This document shows, piece after piece, positions 5,682 through 23,824 of a stretch of DNA of 64,000 nt. The notes beneath the pieces are model-generated. The model did no database searches. It was not told the DNA's origin and saw only the letters and a list, made by a program, of their open reading frames with translations. Made by a program: the position numbers and the translations under genes. This DNA comes from Phyllobates terribilis (taxonomy: Eukaryota). The stretch spans positions 724,656,001-724,720,000 of the forward strand of contig NW_027362763.1 of NCBI RefSeq assembly GCF_046119375.1. Reading direction: 5' to 3'. The first letter of the stretch is position 1; the number at the start of each line of letters is the position of its first letter.

Positions 5682-5846
5682 GAAGATTATGACCGCCTGA
5701 GACCATTGTCTTATCCCATGACCGATGTCTTCCTGATCTGTTTCTCAGTGGTCAATCCGGCCTCATTTCAGAATGTGAAGGAGGAATGGGTGCCCGAACT
5801 GAAGGAATATGCACCAAATGTGCCATTTTTACTGGTGGGCACACAG
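5682..5846 (+). CDS. RHOQ: Rho GTPase TC10/RhoQ, coding exon 3
   Basis: AG|[55 protein letters not shown]|GT; 165 bp, phase 0/0. Confidence 0.97.
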
Positions 5847-6140
5847 GTAGGTGTCGGTGACATTTTAGAAATACAGATGTGCATTGTATTGTTTCATCTA
5901 TCCTCTTTTTTTTTTTTTTTTTTTTTTGTTACCTTTCTGAAAAATAACTTTACTTCTCAGACTTTATAGCCATTAGATAAACTATGATCAGTGAGGATCT
6001 GATCCTTGAGACCCTTCAGTTATACGCAGGAACCCCACCGCCCCCTTTTTTTTTTTTTTTTTTTTTTTTTAACAATAATTTTTATTAAATGTTTTAACAT
6101 TTTGGATAAAGCATGAGTAAAAAGATTTCACATCAAAGCT

Positions 6141-7284
6141 TAGAAAAATATTTAGATTTGAGAGTCCTCAGTGGTTGATACCTTTTTAATAGCTAACTGA
6201 AAAGATGGTAACAAATTGCAAGCTTTCGAGACTACTCAGGTCTCTTCATCAGGCATAGTATACCACAAAATCTGAAGAGTCAAATATTTATACACACAAG
6301 AAAAAAAAATGCAATAGGTAAGACAGGTGATGAAAAGTATAGTGACTATGGAAGAGATAAACAGTTCTGGCTATAAATATTTTAGCAGTTAATAGATAAG
6401 GAGTGTGAAGGTTTTATTGTCCTGTGACCAGGTTCAGTGTTGTGATGGCCTCACAATTCTGAGGAGCACATTCCTTAGTTGATGTAGAATGACCTAAATC
6501 CATGCGACACATTCATTCCTGCTCTGAAAGTGTTAAAGGTCATCATCAGTTTATATTCTGAGACTCTTCTTTCTCTTTGAGATTTGAAGTTACCTTTTAA
6601 TACTAGTAATTTCATGTCTTTGATGCTGTGATCAGGGGAACAAAAATGCTTGGCTACAGGCAGATCTATTCTTTTTCTTTTATTGTGTGGCGAAGATGAT
6701 TCATCCTTGTTCTAAGTTTTTGCCCTGTCTCCCCTACATAAAGACCCCCAGCTGGACATTTGGTACATATAATTAAATACGCTACATTAGATGTGATACA
6801 GTTGAACGTACCTGGGATCTTATAGTCCTGATGTGAATTGGGAATCTTTATCTTGTTTGTGGTCGTTATAAACGGACAGGTTTTACATTTTTTCTGGTTG
6901 CAAGGAAAGGTACCTGTAGCTGGAGGAGATGACAGGGAGCTTCTGACAATGATGCTTCTTAGATTTGGGGGCTGCCTGAAACACAGAAGTGGGGGGTCTG
7001 GAAATATGGATTGTAATCGGGCATCTTTTTGTAGTAAGGGTTGTAGTTTCCGTGCAGCTCTTCTTAGCGCCTCCAGATTTGGATTGTAGGTGACTACTAG
7101 AGGCACCCGGTTGTTTTCTTGTTTGGTTTTGTAATGTAGGAGATGATTCCTTGATATTCTGGTGGCTCTTGTAATCTGGTTCTCAACTGTTCTTGGATGG
7201 TAGCCCTGTTTCAAAAAGGTCTTTCTGAGGCCATCAAGGTGTTTGTCTCTATCCATCAGGTTGGAACATATCCGATTATATCTG
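6141..7284 (-). mobile_element. Penelope-like element, 5'-truncated (RT thumb + GIY-YIG endonuclease + pLTR)
   Basis: RYNRICSNLMDRDKHL... linker with CxxxxCxxC, then AYLIICTKCPAGGLYVGETGQKLRTRMNH (GIY-YIG); one A-run frameshift at ~6670, ORF otherwise continues PVAKHF...GMN to stop at 6475-6477; hammerhead in 3' region. Confidence 0.9.
6217..6255 (-). ncRNA. Minimal type-I hammerhead ribozyme
   Basis: Minus strand reads UGC-CUGAUGA-A-GAGAC-CUGAGUA-GUCUC-GAAAGCU-U-GCA: intact CUGAUGA and GAAA cores, 5-bp stem II, palindromic AAGCUU helix III, 3-bp stem I. Confidence 0.8.
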
Positions 7285-7396
7285 AAAAGTTTTGAAGATC
7301 GAACTCAGTGTTTATTAGATCTGAGACAATACTGTATGTGTAGCAGTTACCCCTACCCTTCGTTTTTTTTTCTGTTCTATCTGTATTTTGGTGATC

Positions 7397-10300
7397 ATGG
7401 TCATCGTTGGGGAGCTCTGGTACAGCCAGCAGAAAAAGGACACTCTTATTGGAATATGTATAACCAGAGGCATTGACCCCGTCGGCAAAAACAAAGAACA
7501 AATGGTTGCTGCACTGGCGCAACTGGAGGCAGAGCAAGCCCTTCTCCAGACCTCAGCAGGGCCAGGGGTCAGCCGAGATATGGACAGTACTACTGCAGGG
7601 GTCCCACCTGTAGACGCATGCTGCGTCAGCGACCAGGGCAGCGTGGACCCCTATCTGCAGATGGCTCTACAGCAACTTCCTGCAGAGGATCATGAAGGAC
7701 AGCTGAAAGTCATTCAGCAGCACCAGGAGGCCGAGAGGGCCGAGTGAGCTCAGCGAGAGGCAGAGCGAGAGGCCCAAGCCCAGAGGGCCCATAAACTGCA
7801 GATGGCCAAACTCGGGATCCCAGCATCCACCTCACGGAACGGTGAGACCAACAATGCGACCCTGTTTAAGCCCCGTCCAGAGCATTTTCCTGTGATGGAA
7901 AAGGACGGCGACCTCGACACCTTTCTGAGGGGTTTTGAAAAGACTTGCAGACAATACCAGCTGCCGGAGGGGCAGTGGGCCCGATACGTAACTGCAGGGC
8001 TGCGAGGCAAAGCTCTGGATGTGTTTGTAGCTCTTCCTCCGAGCCTCGATGGGAACTATGATGCCATTAAGCAGGCCCTAATCCAGAGGTTTCAACTGAC
8101 TCCTGAGGTGTACCGTAAAAAGTTCTGGAACCTCCAACGTGGACCGCACGACAGTTACAGCGATGTGGTGCATGGGCTCCGAACCAACTTTGAGCAGTGG
8201 ATCCAAGGACTGTCAGCGACCACCTTTGAGCAGCTAAAGGATCTGATGGTGAAAGACCAGTTCCTGCATCTGTGTCCGACTGAGGTACGGCAGTTCGTGA
8301 TGGATCGAGAGCCACCAGATGGCAATAAAGCAGCGCAGATCGCAGACACCTACGAGGCCAACCGGAGACCGGAGGTGCGGAAGCTGGTTGTCGCCAGCTG
8401 GAAAGGGGGTAAGCCATCAACCACCATCCCTGCCCTTGCCAGCCGACCTTCCAGAGGCCTTTTTCCCGTTACCAATGCCCGGCCTGCATCTGATGCCCGC
8501 AGGTGTTATTTCTGCAACCAGACTGGTCATCTCAGCGCCACTTGCCCAGAGAAGCAGAGGAAGAAACCCCCCCCCCCCCCATCCAAGGCCCTAGGGCCTA
8601 ATGTCTCAGTTCTTTTGGTGGGTGGGCCGGTTGGGAGGGCCTGTGAAAACTTGCAGTCTGTCATGGTGGGGGACACTGTCACTGTAGGCCTCAAGGACAC
8701 TGGGGCCGAACGAATCCTCATCCGACCCAAACTGGTGTCCGCTGAAGAGCTTATTCCGGGAAAGACCCTGACTGTCACTGGGATTGGGGGCGTCCGATGC
8801 CCCTTGCCCATGGCCCAGGTTTTTATTGATTGGGGTGCGGGGAGTGGGGTGAAGGAAGTGGGAGTATCTGGAAATCTACCTGCAAATGTTTTGTTGGGAA
8901 CTGATTTGGGGAGGATGTTTGCTTATTATGTCCCTGACACCCCTCCCCGATCTGATACAGTTGGTAAGGTTAATGCTGATAATGTGAATGTCAATGATGA
9001 TGATGTTGATGTTGTATTGGAAGGTACAGGAGAACTCAGCCATGTCACGCTGTGGGGTGATATTGCTGAGGATCCCCTAGCAGGAGCAAGTGTCAGTGCT
9101 AAGGGTAATGGGGAGAGGCACAGGGACCATGAAGCAGGTGGTGCTGTGCCAGCGACCAGTGTCACAACAGATGGTGACCTGGCTGATGGTAGCTGCCCCA
9201 TACGTAGCACTGTGCCTGAGGTAATGGGGGAGGATGGGGAAGAAGTACTCATAGCCGCGCAGGATGATGGGACGGTGTTATTCCCTGGGGAGACGGCCTA
9301 TATAGCCGCTGTTACCCGCAGTCAGAGTGCCCAGAATGCAAGTAACGCCCTGCCTTCTGGACCCTCCTCGGACAGAGGAATAACAGAATCAGGTATGGAC
9401 CCAGAGCCGGTCCCAGTGAGGACGTGGCCTTTAACCTCACTTCTGGCTTCCTCCAGCCAGGAGTTTCAGGCAGCTCTGCACTCCGATGCTAGCCTGGAGA
9501 CGTTAAGGAGCCTCGCTGAGAAGCCCACTTCCGAGTCGGGTAAGGAGAGGGTATTCTGGGACCAAGGGAGGTTGTACCGGGAGACAGTTCCCTGTACACC
9601 CCAACAGGAGTGGCTGAGGGAAAGACAGCTGGTCTTCCCCTACCAATTCAGGGATGAGTTGTTGCGGATCGCCCATGAGATTCCACTCTCTGGACACTTG
9701 GGGGTCAGCAAAACCAAGGCCCGGCTGTCTCACCACTTTTATTGGCCCAAAATGGGGACGGATGTGGTGAACTACTGTCGCTCCTGTACCACGTGTCAAA
9801 GAGTGGGAAAGTCAGGGCCGGCTCCCAAAGCCCCCCTGATTTCTTTGCCAGTGATAGAGGAGCCTTTCCAGAGGATTGCTGTGGACATTGTGGGACCACT
9901 GGCCATACCCAGCAGCTCTGGAAAACGTTTCATCCTTACCGTGGTAGACTGCTACCCGGTATCCGGAGGCAGTAGCCCTGTCCTCAGTTAGGGTGGATAA
10001 GGTGGCGGACGCCCGCTTGGCCATCTTTTTGCGAGTAGGCTTTCCCAGGCAGATGCTTACCGACCAGGGGACCCAGTTCATGTCTCGCTTAATGGAGGCC
10101 CTATGTAAGAAAATGCAGGTGCAGCATCTGGTATCGAGCGCGTATCATCCCCAAACCAATGGTTTGTGTGAGCGATTCAACGGTACCCTCAAACAGATGT
10201 TAAAAATGCTGGTTGAGACCCAGGGACGCGACTGGGAGCGTTACCTCCCACACCTGTTATTTGCTTACAGAGAGGTTCCACAGGCCTCGACGGGGTTCTC

Positions 10301-12440
10301 CCCCTTTGAGCTCCTGTATGGCAGGCGTGTCCGAGGACCCCTTGGGTTGATAAGGGAATTCTGGGAAGCTCGGCTCTTCTTCCCAGGAGTGTCCATCGTG
10401 GAGTATGTCGTGCGCTTCCGTGACAAGATGCAGACCTTGACGCAGTTGGTGCATGACAACATGGCGCAAGCCCAGGCTGACCAGAAGCATTGGTATGACC
10501 AGAATGCCTGAGAGCGGACCTACCAGGTGGGTCAGAAGGTGTGGGTGCTGGTCCCCGTACCAAAGGACAAGCTTCAGGCGGCCTGGGAAGGCCCGTACGT
10601 CATTCACCATCAGCTCAACCCGGTCACCTACGTGATCACTCTTGACCACGCGCGGGGTAGGCGGAAGGCTTTTCACGTTAATATGATGAAGGCTCATCAA
10701 GAATGTGTAGCCTGCGTCCTACTGGTCTGCAGCCTGCCCGAGGATGGGGAGGACGACCCCCTCTTGGACATTCTGGCCCAAGCGAAGGCCAGCGGGTCCC
10801 TAGAGCAGGGTTCCCCAACTCCAGTCCTCAAGGCCCACCAACAGGTCATGTTTTCAGGATTTCCTTAGTATTGCACAGGTGATAATTACATCACCTGCAC
10901 AGGCAATAATTCCATCACCTGTGCAATACTAAGGAGATCCTGAAAACCTGACCTGTTGGTGGGCCTTGAGGACTGGAGTTGGGGAACACTGCCCTAGAGG
11001 ATGTAGAGATAAGCGCCTTGCTATCCGCAGACCAGAGGTCTCAGATGCGAGCAGTGCTGAAACCCTTCCAAGCAGTGTTCACCAACCTGCCTGGCAGGAC
11101 TGTAGTGGTGGTCCATGAAGTGGACACCGGGAATCATGCCCCACTCCGGCGGACAGCCTATCGAATCTCCGACGAGGTGCAGCATGTCATGCGCCAGGAG
11201 GTCGAGGAGATGCTGAAATTGGGGGTGATTAAGCGGTCCAAGAGCGTGTGGGCCTCACCTGTGGTCCTGGTGCCAAAGCAGGACCAGACCACCCGGTTCT
11301 GTGTGGACTACAGGGGGTTCAACGCTATCACAGCCTCTGATGCACAACCAATGCCACGCATTGAGGAGCTGCTTGAGCGGTTAGCCAGCGCGAGCTATCT
11401 CTCCATTATGGATCTGAGTCGTGGATATTGGCAGATTCCCTTGAGCCCCGGAGAAGTCCGCCTTTATCACCCCCTGCGGATTGTATGAATCCACAGTCAT
11501 GCCTTTTGGCATGAAAAATGCCCCTGCCACTTTCCAGCGAATGGTCAACCACCTGCTCCAGGGACTGGAGAGGTACGCAGTGGCGTACCTGGATGACATT
11601 GCCGTCTTCAGTCCCACCTGGGAGGATCACCTCGAGCATCTGCAGCAGGTGCTCGGGCGCATTCACCAGGCGGGCTTGTCCATCAAGCCAGGAAAGTGCC
11701 AGATGGTCATGAACGAGGTCCACTACCTGGGGCACCGGGTAGGTGGGGGTACTCTGAAGCCAGAGCCTGGGAAGGTGGACGCTATCGTGTCCTGGCCCAC
11801 CCCCAGGACCAAGAAGCAGGTGCAGTCCTTCTTGGAGACCGCAGGGTACTATAGACGCTTTGTACAAGACTATAGTAGCCTTGCGAAGCCCTTGACAGAC
11901 CTCACCAGGAGGAGCCTACCCCATTCAGTCAAATGGACAAAGGAATGCGAGGTGGCCTTTGGGGCTTCGAAGACTGCCCTGAGCAGCTCTCCTGTGCTAA
12001 AGGCGGTCGACGGCACACGGCCACTCTTTGTACAGACCGACGCCAGTGAGTTTGGCCTCGGTGCTGTACTCAGCCAGGTCGACTCGGGGAACCAAGAACA
12101 CCCCTTGTTGTACCTAAGCCGGAAACTGCTGCCGAGGGAAGTGGCCTATTCCACCATAGAGAAGGAGTGCCTGGCCATTGTATGGGCCCTGCACCACTTA
12201 CAGCCTTACTTGCACGGGCGCCCCTTCACTGTCGTGACTGACCACAACCCCCTGAGTTGGCTGCACACCATGTCGGTGCCAACGGAAGGTTGTTACGCTG
12301 GAGCCTCACCTTCCAGCAGTACGACTTTACCGTTCAACACTGCAAAGGCAGCGAGCATGGCAATGCTGATGGGTTGTCCCGGCGAGGGGAGCCTCCAGAG
12401 ATACGCCTGGAGGAGTACCAGAATGTCCTACCTCCATAGC
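7397..12440 (+). pseudogene. gag-pol polyprotein pseudogene (SCAN-like capsid, CCHC knuckle, protease, integrase, RT, RNase H)
   Basis: CYFCNQTGHLSATC (~8504), DTG protease (~8696), HHCC integrase zinc finger (~9670-9800), D..D..E (VDIVGP, TDQG, ERFN), YLDD (~11586), TDAS RNase H; disabled by CGA>TGA stops at 7745 and 10509, frameshifts near 9950, 11450, 12270 and a MITE at 10806. Confidence 0.92.
10806..10991. mobile_element. hAT-type MITE (186 bp) inserted in Gypsy pol
   Basis: ~43-bp TIRs CAG(G/T)GTTCCCCAACTCCAGTCCTCAAGG..., perfect 8-bp TSD CCCTAGAG (10798-10805, 10992-10999). Confidence 0.92.
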
Positions 12441-12460
12441 GCAGTCTAAAAAGGGGGAGG

Positions 12461-13642
12461 TGTCAGGCAAAATGTATTTTTGTCCTAGTTTTAAAAATGA
12501 GAGATGTCTTAAATCTCCACCCCCTGCTCATTTGGAAGAGGCTACATAGAACTCACTCTTGCTTTCCCCCTAACAAGGAATTTTTATTACTGCCATAAAA
12601 CCTCAGCTAAAGAACAAGCATTCAGGTATAAACTGGAACTCCCTCCAAAATCCTATTGTCTAACTGTACAAACTTTTAATGTCGAGTTTAATAGTGCACA
12701 TGACTGTCACAAACATAAGGACCACATTTTTTGGATGTTCACCTTTTTCCAATTGCGACGGTATATCTTACATAACTGGGAGACCACCGGAAGCACGGGA
12801 AATGGATTCTGAGCGTCAGAGATATCATATTTGATATCCATCTTCATGAATATTGGTGACGGCAAACATGATGTCTCCATCTTGGAGGTGGGACCCCCCC
12901 ATACCAAGATATGAAATCTGAAGGATTTTTATGTCTTGTGCAGCTGGGTGGGTTCACAAAACCGAGCCCCCGTGTGAGGTAAACAACATGGGTGTCTCCT
13001 AGTGTTTTGGCCTCTTACTAAAAACCAGAACGGACATTTTACTTCATTCTAACCCAGGGACGTCAGACGCATGCACTCCTCGTCGCTGCGTGGAGGAATC
13101 ACACCTAATTTCCGGGGAGCCGTCCCCCCCCCCCCCACAGAATCTGAGACCATCACCTCGTGGCGCAGGTTTTGCTATCCCTTATCCCTTTTATTTTAAT
13201 AACTGTTTTATGCATATATGTAAATTGTCTCTCTTTTTATAATATCTTGTATATCTTTTGTAAACACTTCCCACTTTCGGGAGTAAATCATTATTATTTA
13301 CCAGCTTCGTTCTTCTTGTCCTATGTCGACGAGCAAACACGTTCCTCCCCCACTAATTCACGTTACCTAACGGGTACCCGATCCACCTGTTAAGCGATCG
13401 GTGGTGGCAGTATACCAGTATTTGTGATATTGTGGTTTGAGGGTGGCTGGACGGAGGTATATATACATTCCTGGAAGGAACTGGTGGTATATATACGTCC
13501 TCTCACATCACGTGCCACAATAGTCGACATAAATTAGAGCAGCTGCGCCCTGTTGCTTATCCTCGGTCAATACCGTGTTTGACCAGCAGGATAAGGGGGC
13601 ACCAGAGGGCTGCAAGGTCTGACCAAGTGTGTTTTTGTGACA
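12461..13642 (+). repeat. Gypsy LTR (1182 bp)
   Basis: Starts TGTCA immediately after purine tract AAAAAGGGGGAGG; ends TGACA; no second copy in the window. Confidence 0.85.
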
Positions 13643-13644
13643 AT

Positions 13645-13662
13645 TGGTGGCAGCGGTGGGAT
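13645..13662 (+). other. Primer-binding site, tRNA-Leu
   Basis: TGGTGGCAGCGGTGGGAT = exact reverse complement of the last 18 nt (ATCCCACCGCTGCCACCA) of vertebrate tRNA-Leu(AAG/TAG type) including CCA. Confidence 0.88.
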
Positions 13663-13716
13663 AAATATTTTTCTATCTACTGGCTAACACGGTACAAGAA
13701 TATATATATTTTCCAT
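13662..13716 (+). mobile_element. Probable 3' tail of the Penelope-like element, in opposite orientation to its body
   Basis: First 14 nt TAAATATTTTTCTA are the exact reverse complement of 6141-6154 where the PLE body stops; followed directly by the second TSD copy (13717). Confidence 0.65.
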
Positions 13717-14711
13717 ACATCAAAGCTTTGCATGAATACTCTTAAAGATATAAAATCCCCCCCCTACCCTTCTCTCCTCCCAAAATGCAGCAATTTATGT
13801 AATGTATAACGTCTTCCATACCTGAAATAAAACTCTCCTCTAACTAAGCAAATCTGTTCGTTTTAATTTTTGTCCGCCCTATTGTCCATGCTACATGGTT
13901 ACAAGTGTCCCGGAACCACCTGACTAGACCTTCAAGATCCCCAAAGTGCCTTGAATGTCGTTTAATAAGTACCACTCGGAATGAGCAAATGGCTGAACCA
14001 CTCCCACGATTTCTTCTTGTGAGCATTTCCTTTCTAGTAATTGTCTCCACTTTTCAAAGAATTTCCCGGTCAGTTTGGTCTTATGCCTTTCTGCCTCCAA
14101 TTTTTCTAAAAGAATCAGCTGTTTTAGGTTGGACACCACTTCCTTCACGGAGGGAGCCTTCTCCGATATCCAATTTCGTAGAATGCATTTTTTTGCCAAG
14201 ATCATGATACTGTGTATTAGGGTGAGTCTGCGTCCTCGTTGACCTATATCCTCCCCTTCAAACCCTTCTCCTCTGTAATGAAAAATCCATGGATCTAATG
14301 CCCAATCCCCCCCCCCCCCCCAGATCCTCTTAACCAGACTCCTAATACTCTTCCAAAAAATTTGAATTGTTTTACATCTCCATAACCTGTGAAACATGTC
14401 AGTATTATCTTCTTGACATTTCGGGCAGGGCCTCCGTCGGATTCCACCCTCCCCCCGAATCGGGACATTGAACCCATAAATGGCCCTGTGAATAATCCTA
14501 AATTGGGTATCTCTCCATGCCTCATTAATCACGTTTTTTTTCATTGTTGCCCGTCCTTGTAGGATCTTATCACTGCCCCTTTTAATGTTTTCCAGCCACT
14601 TCAGGCATCTAGGTACGGATAAGGTTCTATGTCTGAAGAAATATTGAAGGTGGCCCCTCATACTCTTGTTGGGTGGGTCACATCCTCCTCAATCGTCAAT
14701 TAAAGAAGTTG

Positions 14712-15198
14712 CCCAGGATTGGGCACCACATTTTAAAAAAGACATTGAAAAACTGGAGCAAGTTCAGAGAAGAGCTACCAGGATGGTGAGCGGACTGCAA
14801 ACTATGTCCTACAAGGAACGGTTAAAGGATCTGGGAATGTTTAGCTGCAAAAAAGAAGACAGAGAGGATACTTTAATAGCTGTCTACAAATATCTGAAGG
14901 GATGTCACAGTGGAGAGGGATCATCCTTATTCTCATGTACACAAGGAAACACGAGAAGCAATGGAATGAAACTGAAAGGGAGAAGATACAAATTAGATAT
15001 TAGAAAAAAGTTAACAGTGAAGTGTGATCAATGAGTGGAACAGGCGGCCATGAGAGGTGGTGAGTACTCCTTCAGTGGAAGTCTTCATACAGAGGCTGGA
15101 CAGACATGTGTCTGAGATGGTTTAGTGACTCCTGCATTGAGCAGGGGGTTGGACCTGATGACCCTGGAGGTCCCTTCCAACTCTAACATTCTATGATT
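14712..15198 (+). mobile_element. CR1 LINE 3' fragment
   Basis: WAPHFKKDIEKLEQVQRRATRMV...LIAVYKYLKG and terminal GGTCCCTTCCAAC...ATTCTATGATT typical of CR1. Confidence 0.9.
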
Positions 15199-19300: not shown

Positions 19301-20595
19301 ATTGCAGGAGAATAACATCAGCTAGAAAAAAATCAAGTCAATTGCAAACTTATTTTCATGCTGTCTAACTAACTAAAGCAATTCAATAACCTGAGACTAC
19401 CCCTTTACCACATATTATTGTGGCGACACACTTGGCTTTTTCCGGCAACCCATAGAATGAATGGAGCGTCAGTCGAGCATGTGCACGGTGACCTCTAGAT
19501 TTCCGCCAAGTACTGATATTAAATCCACTTTTTTTAAGTGTGAAAAAAATAGAAAAAGGGGCCAAAAGTCAAAAATTTGGAGAGCAAGTATGGCTTGGGC
19601 AGAAAGACGTGAGTCATAAATGTCCCCCAATGAATAGATTAGGGAGATCTGTCACTTGGCCGTATGACTGGTCTGTGTGGTGGTCATATGCTGAGGGACC
19701 CAAGGTGGGATTAGATCCTAGCAAAGGAAACTGTTCTCTTGACTGTATCTCGAAGGGGGTCTATGCTTCGAATTTCAATACCAGCTGACTGACAATCCAG
19801 CCTAGGACACCCCCTGTTTACTTACTAATATTACATGGCCAATTATTATTATTCCGGTTGTATTCCCGCTGAATGCTGGATCAGCTTCCACAGTTTTGTC
19901 TGACATTTCTATTCTACGTGTATCCCTCAATGAAGACGCATTCTGCACAGGCGGATGGGAACCGGCGCTTGCAATTTTCGCTGCCTACTGAACAGGAAAA
20001 TAAATGGTCTCTTTTTTAGAAAATTGGTCTTATTTCAAGGACAATGTATTATGTTCTGGCTTTTCCAGGTAATTTAGCTTTACCTTCCTCAGACAGTTAT
20101 CTCGCGCTTGTGTCACATTCACCAGACTAGTTTGGATATTCTCATTTAGCATCAGTATCATTGTTGCAGTGTGTCCGGGGTAGGGGTGGGGGATTCAGGT
20201 GGTTCACTGTGATTTTCACCATAATTGCAATATACAGAAAATGTTGAGTAACTTTATAAATACTTTACTGAATGAAGTATTATTCTGGCATACTGTAGGA
20301 AATACACTGAACATGGTCCCTAACTGTGAATGAAACACTATCAGTTCTGTGCCTTTTTAAAGGTGTGTTCCTGGGAATAGGGAAAAATAACTAAAGGAAA
20401 TGTCATTAAATTCTTTTAATTGGCAAATCACAATGGTTTTCTGTAGAGAGGGAAGAGCACCATATAATTAAAATGGCTATCATCTTGTTGCAGTGACAGA
20501 AGCCTCTCCTAGAATGTTAGGACAGGAGCCTGTGACTATGTGCAGTAGGAAGTTCCTGTGATCTAGAGATAAACTGTACCATGTTTTGTCATTCA

Positions 20596-21190
20596 GATAC
20601 ACAGGGTGGACAGCAGTGTGAGCAGCCTCTCCTTACCTCTGCTCCCCTGGTATCTCCAGTATTAGATCAGACAGACAGGGTGGGAGCAGTGTGAGCAGCC
20701 TCTCCTTACCTCTGCTCCCTTGGTATCTCCAGTATTAGATCAGATACACAGGGTGGACAGCAGTGTGAGCAGCCTCTCCTTACCTCTGCTCCCCTGGTAT
20801 CTCCAGTATTAGATCAGACAGACAGGGTGGGAGCAGTGTGAGCAGCCTCTCCTTACCTCTGCTCCCTTGGTATCTCCAGTATTGGATCAGATACACAGGG
20901 TGGACAGCAGTGTGAGCAGCCTCTCCTTACCTCTGCTCCCTTGGTATCTCCAGTATTAGATCAGATACACAGGGTGGACAGCAGTGTGAGCAGCCTCTCC
21001 TTACCTCTGCTCCCCTGGTATCTCCAGTATTAGATCAGACAGGGTGGGAGCAGTGTGAGCAGCCTCTCCTTACCTCTGCTCCCTTGGTATCTCCAGTATT
21101 AGATCAGATAGGCAGGTTGGACTTCTCCTTAATGCTGTACCCCTGATATCTCCAGTATTAGATCAGATGGACAGCAGTGTGAGCAGCCTC
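20596..21190. repeat. 73/74-bp minisatellite, ~8 units
   Basis: Unit starts at 20596, 20670, 20743, 20817, 20890, 20964, 21038, 21107; core CAGCAGTGTGAGCAGCCTCTCCTTACCTCTGCTCCC(C/T)TGGTATCTCCAGTATTAGATCA. Confidence 0.95.
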
Positions 21191-21998
21191 TTATTGCCCC
21201 TGCATGATATCTAAAAAGTAAACAAAATTTTTCACCGACCAATAGGGCTAATATTAGATTCTTACTTCCTGTGCTTCACATGGGCATTAGCAGCAATAGA
21301 CTGACTTGGACCCTTTTTGTTTGCATAGAGATGTTATCTGAGCATGCTCTAATCAGGGCAAAGGTAATTGAGAAGTGAGGGGGAGGAGGTGGATCCTTTA
21401 CCTACTGTATATAGATGTCAGCAGTCCTTGTACAGTAGTGTGGCTTAAGTGAGCTGTGACATCCCTATTGGGATTGTTGGCTCCTGTGTCATTTGCTGTG
21501 AATAGAGGTCTTGTCTGTCATTGTAATCCTGTCTGTGATGATAATGAGACTGCTGAAAGACTTCTGTACAGAACAGGAAATATGAGTGTAATATTAGAGC
21601 TAGTGAGAAAACTGCAAGATTCATGATTTTTTCTTTTTTAATAGTGATATGAAAAATTGCAAAAAAATTGTTTTTAAAAATATGGATAAAGAGGTAAAGA
21701 GTCAGCTCACCCATGTGGAGACCAAACGCACAGAGCCAGCAGTGCCGCGTGGGAGCCAATCCAGAGAAAAAAGATTCCGGCGTAGATATCTTCCATAAAA
21801 ATCAATTTTATTAGTAAAGTTAAATACGATCCAAAATTCAGTCCATAGTCACAACCACAACAATTAATCATTGCATATCGACATACGCCAAAGACTAGCG
21901 TTTTATGTCATATCCTACAAAAGCACATGGTACAGATCATCCAATCCAATAGTAGTTTAAAATCCCACTATAATTGATTTTTATGGAAGAGCTCTAAG

Positions 21999-22210: not shown

Positions 22211-23824
22211 CCCTATTAATCTTAAGCTTAATGTTTTATAAAAATTGGTGTTTTTGCAACAGCTATTTCAGTTTGATAGATGTAATAACTGTTGGACACA
22301 GTAATGTTTCTGCCTTGAAATGAGGTTTATTGTACTAACAGAAAATGTGCAATCTGCATTCAAACAAAATTTGACATGTGCATAAGTATGGGCACCCTTA
22401 TCATTTTCTTGTTTTAAATACTCCTACCTACTTTTTACTGACTTACTAAAGCACACTTTTTGGTTTTGTAACCTCATTGAGCTTTGAACTTCATAGCCAG
22501 GTGTATGCAATCATGAGAAAAGCTACTTAAAGTGGCCACTTGCAAGTTGTTCTCCTGTTTGAATCTCCTCTGAAGAGTGGCATCATGGGCTCCTCAAAAC
22601 AACTGTCAAATGATCTGAAAACAACGATTATTCAACATAGTTGTTCAGGGGAAGGATACAAAAAGCTGTCTGAGATTTAACCTGTCAGTTTCCACTGTGA
22701 GGAACATAGTAAGGAAGTGGAAGAACACAGGGACAGTTCTTGTTAAGGCCAGAAGTGGCAGGCCAAGAAAAACATCAGAAAGGCAGAGAAGAAGAATGGT
22801 GAGATCAGTCAAGGACAATCCTCAGACCACCTCCAGAGAGCTGCAGCATCAACTTGCTGCAGATGGTGTCACTGTGCATCGGTCAACTATACAACGCACT
22901 TTGCACAAGTAGAAGCTGTATGGGAGAGTGATGCGAAAGAAGCCGTTTCTGCAAGCGCGCCACAAACAGTCGGCTGAGGTATGCAAAAGCACATTTGGAG
23001 AATCCAATTTCTCTTTGGAAGAAGGTTCTGTGGACTGATGAAACAAAGATTGAGTTGTTTGGTCATACAAAAAGGCATTATGCATGGCGGCAAAATAACA
23101 CAGCATTCCATGAAAAACATTTGCTACCCACAGTAAAATTTGGTGGAGGTTCCATCATGCTTTGGGGCTGTGTGGTCAATGCCGGCACCGGGAATCTTGT
23201 TAAAGTTGAGGGACGCATGGATTCCACTCAGTATCAGCAGATTCTTGACAATAATATTCAAGAATCAGTGATAAAGTTGAAGTTACGCAGGGGTTGGATC
23301 TTTCAGCAAGACAATGATCCAAAACACCGCTCCAAATCTACTCAGGCATTCATGCAGAGGAACAATTACAATGTTCTGGAATGGCCATCCCAGTCCCCAG
23401 ACCTGAATATCATTGAACATCTGTGGGATCATTTGAAGAGGGCTGTCCATGCTCGGCGACCATCAAACTTAACTGAACTGGAATTGTTTTGTAAAGAGGA
23501 ATGGTCAAAAATACCTTCATCCAGGAACTCATTAAAAGCTACAGGAAGCGACTAGAGGCTGTTATTTTTGCAAAAGGAGGATCTACTAAATATTAATGTC
23601 ACTTTTCTGGTGAGGTGCCCATACTTATGCACCTGTCAAATTTTGTTTGAATGCAGATTGCACATGTTCTGTTACTACAATAAACCTCATTTCAAGGCAG
23701 AAACATTACTGTGTCCAACAGTTATTACATCTATCAAACTGAAATAGCTGTTGCAAAAACACCAATTTTTATAAAACAATAAGCTAAAGATTAATAGGGG
23801 TGCCCAAACTTTTTCATATCACTG
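22211..23824 (+). mobile_element. Tc1 transposon (DD34E, long IR/DR-type TIRs ~200 bp)
   Basis: 22211-22400 is inverted at ~23610-23800; right end ...CATATCACTG|TA; GGTGCCCA(T/A)ACTT direct repeats inside the TIR. Confidence 0.93.
22585..23596 (+). pseudogene. Tc1 transposase pseudogene
   Basis: MGSSKQLSNDLK...SGRPRK...WTDETK...QDNDPKH-(34)-E; at least three frameshifts and a stop at ~22910. Confidence 0.92.

Follow-up and report, generated by a model that had tools for sequence, protein, structure and literature searches.

Within a 64,000-nucleotide (nt) window of the 10.6-Gb Phyllobates terribilis assembly under study (contig NW_027362763.1, forward strand, positions 724,656,001 to 724,720,000), a composite insertion at 6130–13728 unites, under a single target-site duplication (TSD), two arms of a Penelope-like element (PLE) and, at the joint between them, a piece of a Ty3/gypsy retrotransposon, referred to here as Gypsy. 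Loci with L numbers are other places fetched from the same genome. Upstream of the composite, a plus-strand exon at 5682–5846 with AG/GT borders belongs to a Rho-type small GTPase gene (Pfam Ras PF00071, E 1e-12), which we take to be RhoQ-like, and the composite lies downstream of this exon, in what appears to be an intron. The insertion interrupts an L1-like element on the minus strand, of which the poly(A) tail and the last part of the 3' untranslated region (UTR) occupy 6046–6129 and the remainder, truncated at its 5' end, 13729–14572. A C-terminal Cys/His motif is seen in its translation; a Pfam search of the element gave no domain match. The longer part is 94–96% identical to 19 other copies, in all of which the sequence to the left of the insertion is continuous with that from 13729 onwards. 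The 12-nt word ACATCAAAGCTT occurs in the window at 6130–6141 and 13717–13728 only, and because all 19 copies hold this motif once and with the window's flanks (GATTTC|ACATCAAAGCTT|TACA(T/C)G), the repeat is a true TSD. An initial annotation of the stretch had likewise read the direct repeat as a TSD whose removal together with the block restores the L1 3' UTR; an L1 that itself carries the motif twice, which it had named as a counter-indication, is not what the copies show.

The two PLE arms stand head to head. Arm 1 (6141–7284, minus strand, 1,144 nt) has its 3' end at the left TSD, with which it has T6141 in common, carries no tail and is truncated at its 5' end within the open reading frame (ORF), so that it contains the C-terminal part of the ORF with a GIY-YIG-like motif; it is 94–99% identical to other copies. 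Arm 2 (13663–13716, plus strand, about 55 nt) consists of 13 nt before the point at which arm 1 ends (site 1) and a tail that runs on to a second end (site 2), and its last bases match the target imperfectly. This short right arm is PLE sequence, as the initial annotation had supposed, because after ...TTTTTCTA 22 of the 29 other PLE copies carry on with the tail sequence (13676–13714); the remaining 7 stop there. Across the family, 3' ends (n = 52) fall at site 1 in 18 cases, at the tail end in 32 and elsewhere in 2, and the PLE RNA has two fixed start sites, 40–45 nt apart. Since both arms start from these fixed sites and site 2 lies beyond site 1, they overlap by 14 nt, and 6141–6154 is an exact reverse complement of 13662–13675.

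The family has the features of endonuclease-containing (EN+) PLEs. Its ORFs have a Pfam match to RVT_1 followed by a YVGETG motif near the C-terminus, so that a single ORF carries reverse transcriptase (RT) and then a C-terminal GIY-YIG-type endonuclease motif, the latter read by eye; a Pfam search of these ORFs gave no GIY-YIG match. A pseudo-LTR (pLTR) repeat is present at both ends of long copies, the two fixed 3' ends are separated by a tail of 30–40 nt, and arms lie head to head under one TSD. An Rfam search of 5900–14000 at E 1 gave no hammerhead match and nothing but weak hairpin matches, on the later insertion described below. In this family, arms usually lie head to head within a single duplication: 37 of 80 loci found through site 1 and 26 of 49 found through the tail show direct two-arm joints, with 0–10 nt of overlap or a few filler bases. 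In L180–L182 the tail arms share their start base with arm 2 of the window and are joined directly to the other arm. The initial annotation had compared the arrangement with the twin-priming signature of L1, including a small overlap at the inversion point. The likeness holds in so far as the arm geometry, which is the family's usual two-arm, two-start-site layout, functions much like twin priming; L1-type twin priming, with a poly(A)-primed arm and a variable internal primer, was rejected, as there is no poly(A) and both starts are fixed family sites. The 14 nt are a stretch common to the two arms and do not lie at the inversion point. One further tail arm of the family, in L177, contains a 750-nt insert (739–1517) with direct repeats of the 14-nt site-1 word on both sides, which may be another element homing into the pLTR.

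Between the arms, the Gypsy piece spans 7285–13662 on the plus strand (6,378 nt, including a later 186-nt miniature inverted-repeat transposable element, MITE). Its parts are permuted: the order runs from the leader (from +79) through gag-pol and a polypurine tract (PPT) to one long terminal repeat (LTR), an AT dinucleotide and a primer-binding site (PBS). The leader and the start of gag (7285–7747) begin 79 nt past the family PBS. They are followed at 7748–12447 by a gag-(protease)-integrase-RT-RNase H region that matches Pfam SCAN, Integrase_H2C2, rve, RVT_1 and RT_RNaseH and is split by frameshifts and stops; the integrase lies upstream of RT, an order that we take to be of the Gmr1 type (Gmr1-like). 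The PPT (12448–12460) is the same tract that precedes the 3' LTRs of other copies. The single LTR (12461–13642; TG...CA, 1,182 nt), whose sister is the LTR L058, leads into the 2-nt spacer AT and an 18-nt PBS (together 13643–13662, the PBS at 13645–13662), and there Gypsy ends. With gag, integrase, RT and RNase H domains, a PPT and a tRNA PBS, the element belongs to the Ty3/gypsy family, and the piece is colinear with the full-length copies L161 and L164 at 93–95% identity. The MITE (10806–10991) has inverted arms and an 8-bp duplication, CCCTAGAG, at 10798–10805 and 10992–10999, and is not in the full-length copies compared.

Ordinary copies of this Gypsy family have two LTRs, end at CA and are flanked by 5-bp TSDs. 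The window piece departs from such an integrase-made provirus, with its two LTRs, TG...CA ends and 5-bp TSD, and a separate Gypsy insertion with its own duplication, which the initial annotation had considered as evidence against a joint event, does not fit a locus with one LTR and no 5-bp Gypsy TSD. The same annotation had set apart a 105-bp orphan sequence at the left end as a third component. This is Gypsy leader: all 39 non-self matches to 7200–7520 begin at query 83–87 (window 7282–7286) and then enter Gypsy, and in intact copies the stretch that starts at 7285 comes 78 nt after the PBS. The permuted order, the end on the 18-nt PBS and the resulting resemblance to an intermediate of reverse transcription had escaped it. 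Elsewhere in the genome, L044/L076 is a rearranged copy of the three-LTR type in the same family, with the order LTR, PBS, short internal piece, LTR, PBS and internal region.

The right end of the piece coincides with a boundary of the primer tRNA. The PBS is an exact complement of the last 18 nt (positions 59–76) of mature tRNA-Leu(AAG/TAG), genes for which are present in the genome, and the match stops at position 59, adjoining A58. In retroviruses, plus-strand strong-stop DNA ends at m1A58 of the primer tRNA. Intact Gypsy copies run past the PBS into the leader (CATAG...) in 59 of 59 rows, some places being counted twice, and none of the 26 other 3' LTRs that reach their end (29 examined) is followed by a PBS. 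Exact-pattern searches for LTR end plus PBS, whose counts are lower bounds, gave at least 47 matches of this family that lead into the leader; within the family only the window breaks off after the 18-nt PBS, and no match to a 19-nt form of the PBS breaks off after it. On a tree of 39 LTRs, 24 have the long (19-nt) and 15 the tRNA-exact (18-nt) form, scattered with 14 changes as against 12.2 in shuffles. The window PBS is tRNA-exact, and its sister L058 (support 100/99) has the 19-nt form. As modest evidence, this scatter would fit recopying from the tRNA, with the mismatch re-made and resolved in each replication cycle.

The piece thus has, on the right, an LTR, the spacer and 18 nt copied from tRNA, with a 1-nt ambiguity at the junction, and, on the left, an end just past the PBS (+79 nt) and no 5' LTR; the natural minus-strand end lies 78 nt away. 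Because it is permuted and stops where a copy of the primer tRNA would stop, it is likely to be a half-finished product of reverse transcription, and it matches the intermediate that precedes second-strand transfer. That LTR and PBS are copied with the tRNA as template is described in bioRxiv 2022.09.25.509424. A molecule from a later stage seems an unlikely donor, whether a circle with one LTR that had opened close to the PBS or a linear complementary DNA (cDNA) of full length that had kept the 18-nt tRNA copy at its right end and was copied for 6.4 kb. One-LTR circles would yield the same permuted order and are given in the same source as the commonest LTR-retrotransposon product in fly oocytes, and the ends two nucleotides past the LTR at L325, a locus described below, fit finished blunt cDNA; yet nothing would make a circle of some 7.4 kb open precisely at PBS nucleotide 17–18 (about 2 in 7,400 positions), or a linear form break off when the first PBS is still 78 nt away (about 1/75, for a 100-nt zone).

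The searches for PBS-terminated LTRs also brought up sequences outside this family. Two matches that looked like further cases of the same kind belong to another family. A second tRNA-Leu Gypsy family gave five PBS-terminated matches, which represent an LTR variant and not captures: in L218–L222 and L167 the variant ends with the PBS and about 30 nt ending in TGACA. L218 and L219, 5.8 kb apart, look like two LTRs of one element, and because they resemble paired LTRs, the variant has propagated. A tandem array at G000:C11:651.057–651.069 Mb and beyond consists of units with an LTR end and a tRNA-Leu PBS, often spaced at multiples of 52 nt, and is a satellite apparently derived from an LTR–PBS junction. 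A large cluster of matches to the 3' end of tRNA-Leu, many of them about 1,460 nt apart, lies at G000:C11:599–608 Mb.

Taken together, these features make it probable that Gypsy cDNA which had not integrated entered by end joining where two target-primed PLE cDNAs faced each other across a joint that was still open. The initial annotation had proposed a single PLE-driven insertion, flanked by one TSD, that took up Gypsy DNA where its two arms meet; this is thereby supported, and the main evidence that cDNA was taken up, rather than RNA or a provirus, is the RT-intermediate shape of the piece. The event would have begun with a staggered PLE cut in the L1 3' UTR, which the TSD shows. One target end would then have primed cDNA at site 1 (1,144 nt) and its counterpart at site 2 (about 55 nt), so that two free 3' ends pointed inwards, of the kind that usually join directly; this layout is observed throughout the PLE family, and we infer the priming from PMC11167929. 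Nearby, a Gypsy molecule may have stalled before second-strand transfer, with a minus strand reaching from U5 back to the PBS region and a plus-strand strong-stop DNA composed of U3-R-U5-AT-PBS(18), tRNA-copied up to the m1A58 block. The tail-arm cDNA could have met the plus-strand 3' end through a 1-nt match, after which fill-in synthesis would add 20 nt and ligation would connect them to the minus strand. The 3' end of the other arm could have annealed, again through a 1-nt match, to single-stranded minus DNA 79 nt past the PBS and primed plus-strand synthesis, all with no role for integrase. These matches correspond to A7285, which fits both PLE and Gypsy at the left junction, and T13662, which fits both at the right. 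Either the host, through microhomology-mediated end joining, or the PLE RT, through a template jump, might have made the joint. Nothing suggests that the locus was copied again; it is now a dead fossil.

The same Gypsy family recurs at other PLE joints. Inspection of the sequences next to the 5' ends of PLE arms revealed three further independent events in which an LTR end of this family abuts the 5' end of a PLE arm. L223 (G000:C5:66039500–66049400) contains, between two TSD copies, a 2.67-kb site-1 arm, about 13 nt of slippage filler, an 892-nt LTR piece ending at −13 from the LTR end and a 1.25-kb tail arm. In L259 and L390 (C1:602541752–602556000), a site-1 arm, an LTR piece of about 400 nt ending at −2 and a full-length arm with two nested insertions lie within a TSD that has a 3-nt slip on the left. 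L325 and L327 (C13:90.08 Mb and C17:5.31 Mb), counted as one event, have LTR-end pieces ending at +2 with an unclipped AT, kept twice in L325, followed by one PLE arm and bounded by a TSD. The L325-type event itself seems amplified, as 11 places, mostly small contigs, share its flank letters. Right ends of the LTRs thus lie at +20 (window), +2, −2 and −13, left ends are scattered, and pieces range from 166 to 6,378 nt. In 156 PLE-anchored loci (1.07 Mb), the Gypsy family (≥83% identity) was found only at these places; a rough estimate that assumes 2,000–30,000 LTRs and 250 junctions gives a chance expectation of 0.002–0.024 for three abutments.

These events bear on two other routes. The first would have PLE machinery copy an RNA, either read-through from a tandem provirus or a PLE–Gypsy source formed by 5' transduction or template switch. 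PLEs can mobilise DNA that lies between pLTRs (PMC3846280), L044/L076 is one existing locus with the order LTR, internal fragment, LTR and PBS, and an LTR-promoted transcript is conceivable for L325/L327. We nevertheless judge it very improbable: normal Gypsy RNA in the established scheme has no U5-PBS after the 3' R region, both L325 junctions retain an A that integrase would clip, no second locus with the window's PBS–tail junction was found, and the four events have four different junctions with pieces from different Gypsy sublineages. As the PLE breakpoints differ as well, a chimeric master shared by the four events was rejected. The second route places a complete two-arm PLE insertion first and, later, a double-strand break patched by Gypsy cDNA with loss of the old joint. 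LTR cDNA does patch breaks in yeast and in mouse zygotes (PMC11372161, PMC4516963), and such a sequence of steps is compatible with the dating below. It is hard to credit even so, since the piece lies exactly at the joint in three two-arm insertions, and none of the loci has one inside an arm or in flanks that lack a PLE end; the very short tail arms of L180–L182, with the same start base and direct joints, moreover show that no deletion is needed to explain arm 2.

A more specific version of joining at the open joint, which we put forward tentatively, is that the PLE RT itself jumps onto free 3' ends of unintegrated LTR cDNA, either strong-stop DNA or unclipped U5. Fixed right ends with scattered left ends are what one expects if the enzyme jumps to a 3' end and 5' truncation ensues, and end joining of cDNA termini predicts much the same pattern. 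If such jumping occurs, PLEs would provide a regular, integrase-free route for LTR-element cDNA into the vertebrate germline, taken in a few per cent of the two-arm insertions made in a shared burst, and the loci would be fossils of RT intermediates otherwise seen only in vitro.

Several observations weigh against the capture of an unintegrated intermediate at an open PLE joint. PBS nucleotide 18 is the end point in a single event, and in two of the remaining three the piece stops before reaching a natural terminus. The tRNA-exact PBS is likewise present in about 40% of ordinary copies, so that this form shifts the odds just about 2.5-fold, and 1 nt of microhomology at each junction tells little about the joining enzyme. 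The tail-anchored survey found this Gypsy at none of 49 joints (49 of 731 matches, all from one contig; L402 was assessed by its junction only), and a search from the Gypsy side, for LTR end plus AT, found none of 30 loci leading into a PLE (30 of 47 matches); most of them were solo or 3' LTRs at which AT is the start of the TSD. Among the 80 site-1 loci, 29 were left without a joint assignment. No empty allele of the locus is among the read contigs listed, only one of the four junctions has read contigs, and divergence separates the L1 host (1.56%) from the insert as little as it does the parts of the insert.

In the tail-anchored loci, three apparent gaps at the joint turned out to be the PLE itself, diverged PLE or nested insertions. 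In L319 and L323, two of the 29 unassigned site-1 loci, the 5' end of a PLE arm adjoins the end of one other LTR-like repeat, through either a later nested insertion or capture. In L336, L345 and L349, LTR pieces that are truncated at the 5' end or arranged head to head stop at CA+AT with no PLE adjoining; these are possible cDNA captures at other breaks.

The assembly itself is supported by reads at the right junction, where a public-run contig from another sample and study covers 13687–13804 (118 nt, no differences) with 30 letters on its short side, one below the bridging mark; a contig from a second sample covers 13692–13788. A read-contig joint of 6141 to 13759 differs in its letters and was read as another L1 copy. 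That the composite is an assembly chimera of repeats is a notion we give almost no weight. Every part of it is a high-copy repeat, and three junctions are without read contigs; against this stand the clean TSD in an otherwise continuous L1, the three similar events elsewhere and the faultless 118-nt contig. Median triplet branch lengths are 1.65% for the PLE arm, 1.65–1.9% for the Gypsy parts and 1.56% for the L1 host, divergences that appear compatible with co-insertion and lack the power to prove it.

Further repeats lie to the right of the composite. A 3' fragment of a long interspersed element (14648–15190), which from its motifs we presume to be CR1-like and which has no Pfam match, adjoins the 5' end of the L1. 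A minisatellite of 73–74-nt units occupies 20593–21203, and a Tc1-like DNA transposon (22211–23799) has 186-nt inverted arms around a transposase-like ORF on the minus strand (22932–23555).

The arms of the composite are those of known EN+ PLEs. Head-to-head insertions with two arms, 3' ends outwards, inverted pLTRs and a tail on one side are described in PMC3846280 and PMC11167929, together with two fixed sites at which RT starts and between which the tail lies, TSDs of about 8–12 nt and AT-rich targets. In vitro, an anole PLE uses two start sites and nicks and extends both target strands (PMC11167929). Unrelated host DNA between pLTRs is mentioned for PLEs in PMC3846280, whereas here the cargo is a different retroelement, sits where the 5' ends of the arms meet and carries ends specific to cDNA. 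For the head-to-head joints, the same paper invokes self-priming. Foreign cDNA in that position means that the joint stayed open until the final step, and favours instead two free ends, one primed from each side of the target. L1 insertions formed by twin priming, and chimeric or templated ones, likewise involve priming by both target ends and end joining of the inner joint, and foreign RNA or DNA can be incorporated (PMC2912911, PMC11702581, PMC13174262). PLE start sites, by contrast, are fixed and lack poly(A), and the partners named in the accessible text of these papers are tRNA, rRNA, snRNA, Alu and mRNA, not LTR cDNA intermediates. The signature of the window, a 3' LTR with an 18-nt PBS, or an LTR with an unclipped dinucleotide, against a non-LTR 5' end, could be sought in other large genomes.

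Capture of Ty1 cDNA at yeast breaks was reportedly described by Moore and Haber, Teng and Gabriel, and Yu and Gabriel (1996–1999). At yeast double-strand breaks, Ty1 uptake is likewise independent of integrase, has a hotspot at the 3' LTR and leaves extra nucleotides found only in cDNA, in 40 of 56 cases (PMC11372161). The breaks there are induced in a laboratory strain and the pieces mostly short, whereas the window is a natural, inherited vertebrate locus with an intermediate of near unit length, and the break is the integration site of another retroelement. Break repair in mouse zygotes similarly incorporates MuERV-L and MaLR LTR pieces that have no TSD of their own, with microhomologies of 1–5 nt and at times, as in L325, several consecutive pieces (PMC4516963). 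There the breaks were made by CRISPR and the pieces are truncated at both ends, and neither 'primer binding' nor 'PBS' occurs in the accessible text of that paper. The intermediate proposed for the Gypsy piece is drawn in bioRxiv 2022.09.25.509424, where a full minus strand with a plus-strand LTR+PBS is said to be closed by host Pol theta, XRCC1 and Lig3 in an alternative end-joining form of second-strand transfer. The window's intermediate differs in that it was apparently joined to foreign ends, not to itself; it thus seems to be a second-strand-transfer intermediate caught by those ends, which bears on whether host end joining has access to this intermediate in a vertebrate germline, as has been suggested for flies. 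The literature covered, which excludes subscription papers and supplements, yielded no account of LTR cDNA intermediates at the joints of PLEs. The capture of LTR cDNA at breaks was thus known already from Ty1 and MuERV-L; its probable presence at PLE joints, and its recurrence there within one genome, appears to be new.

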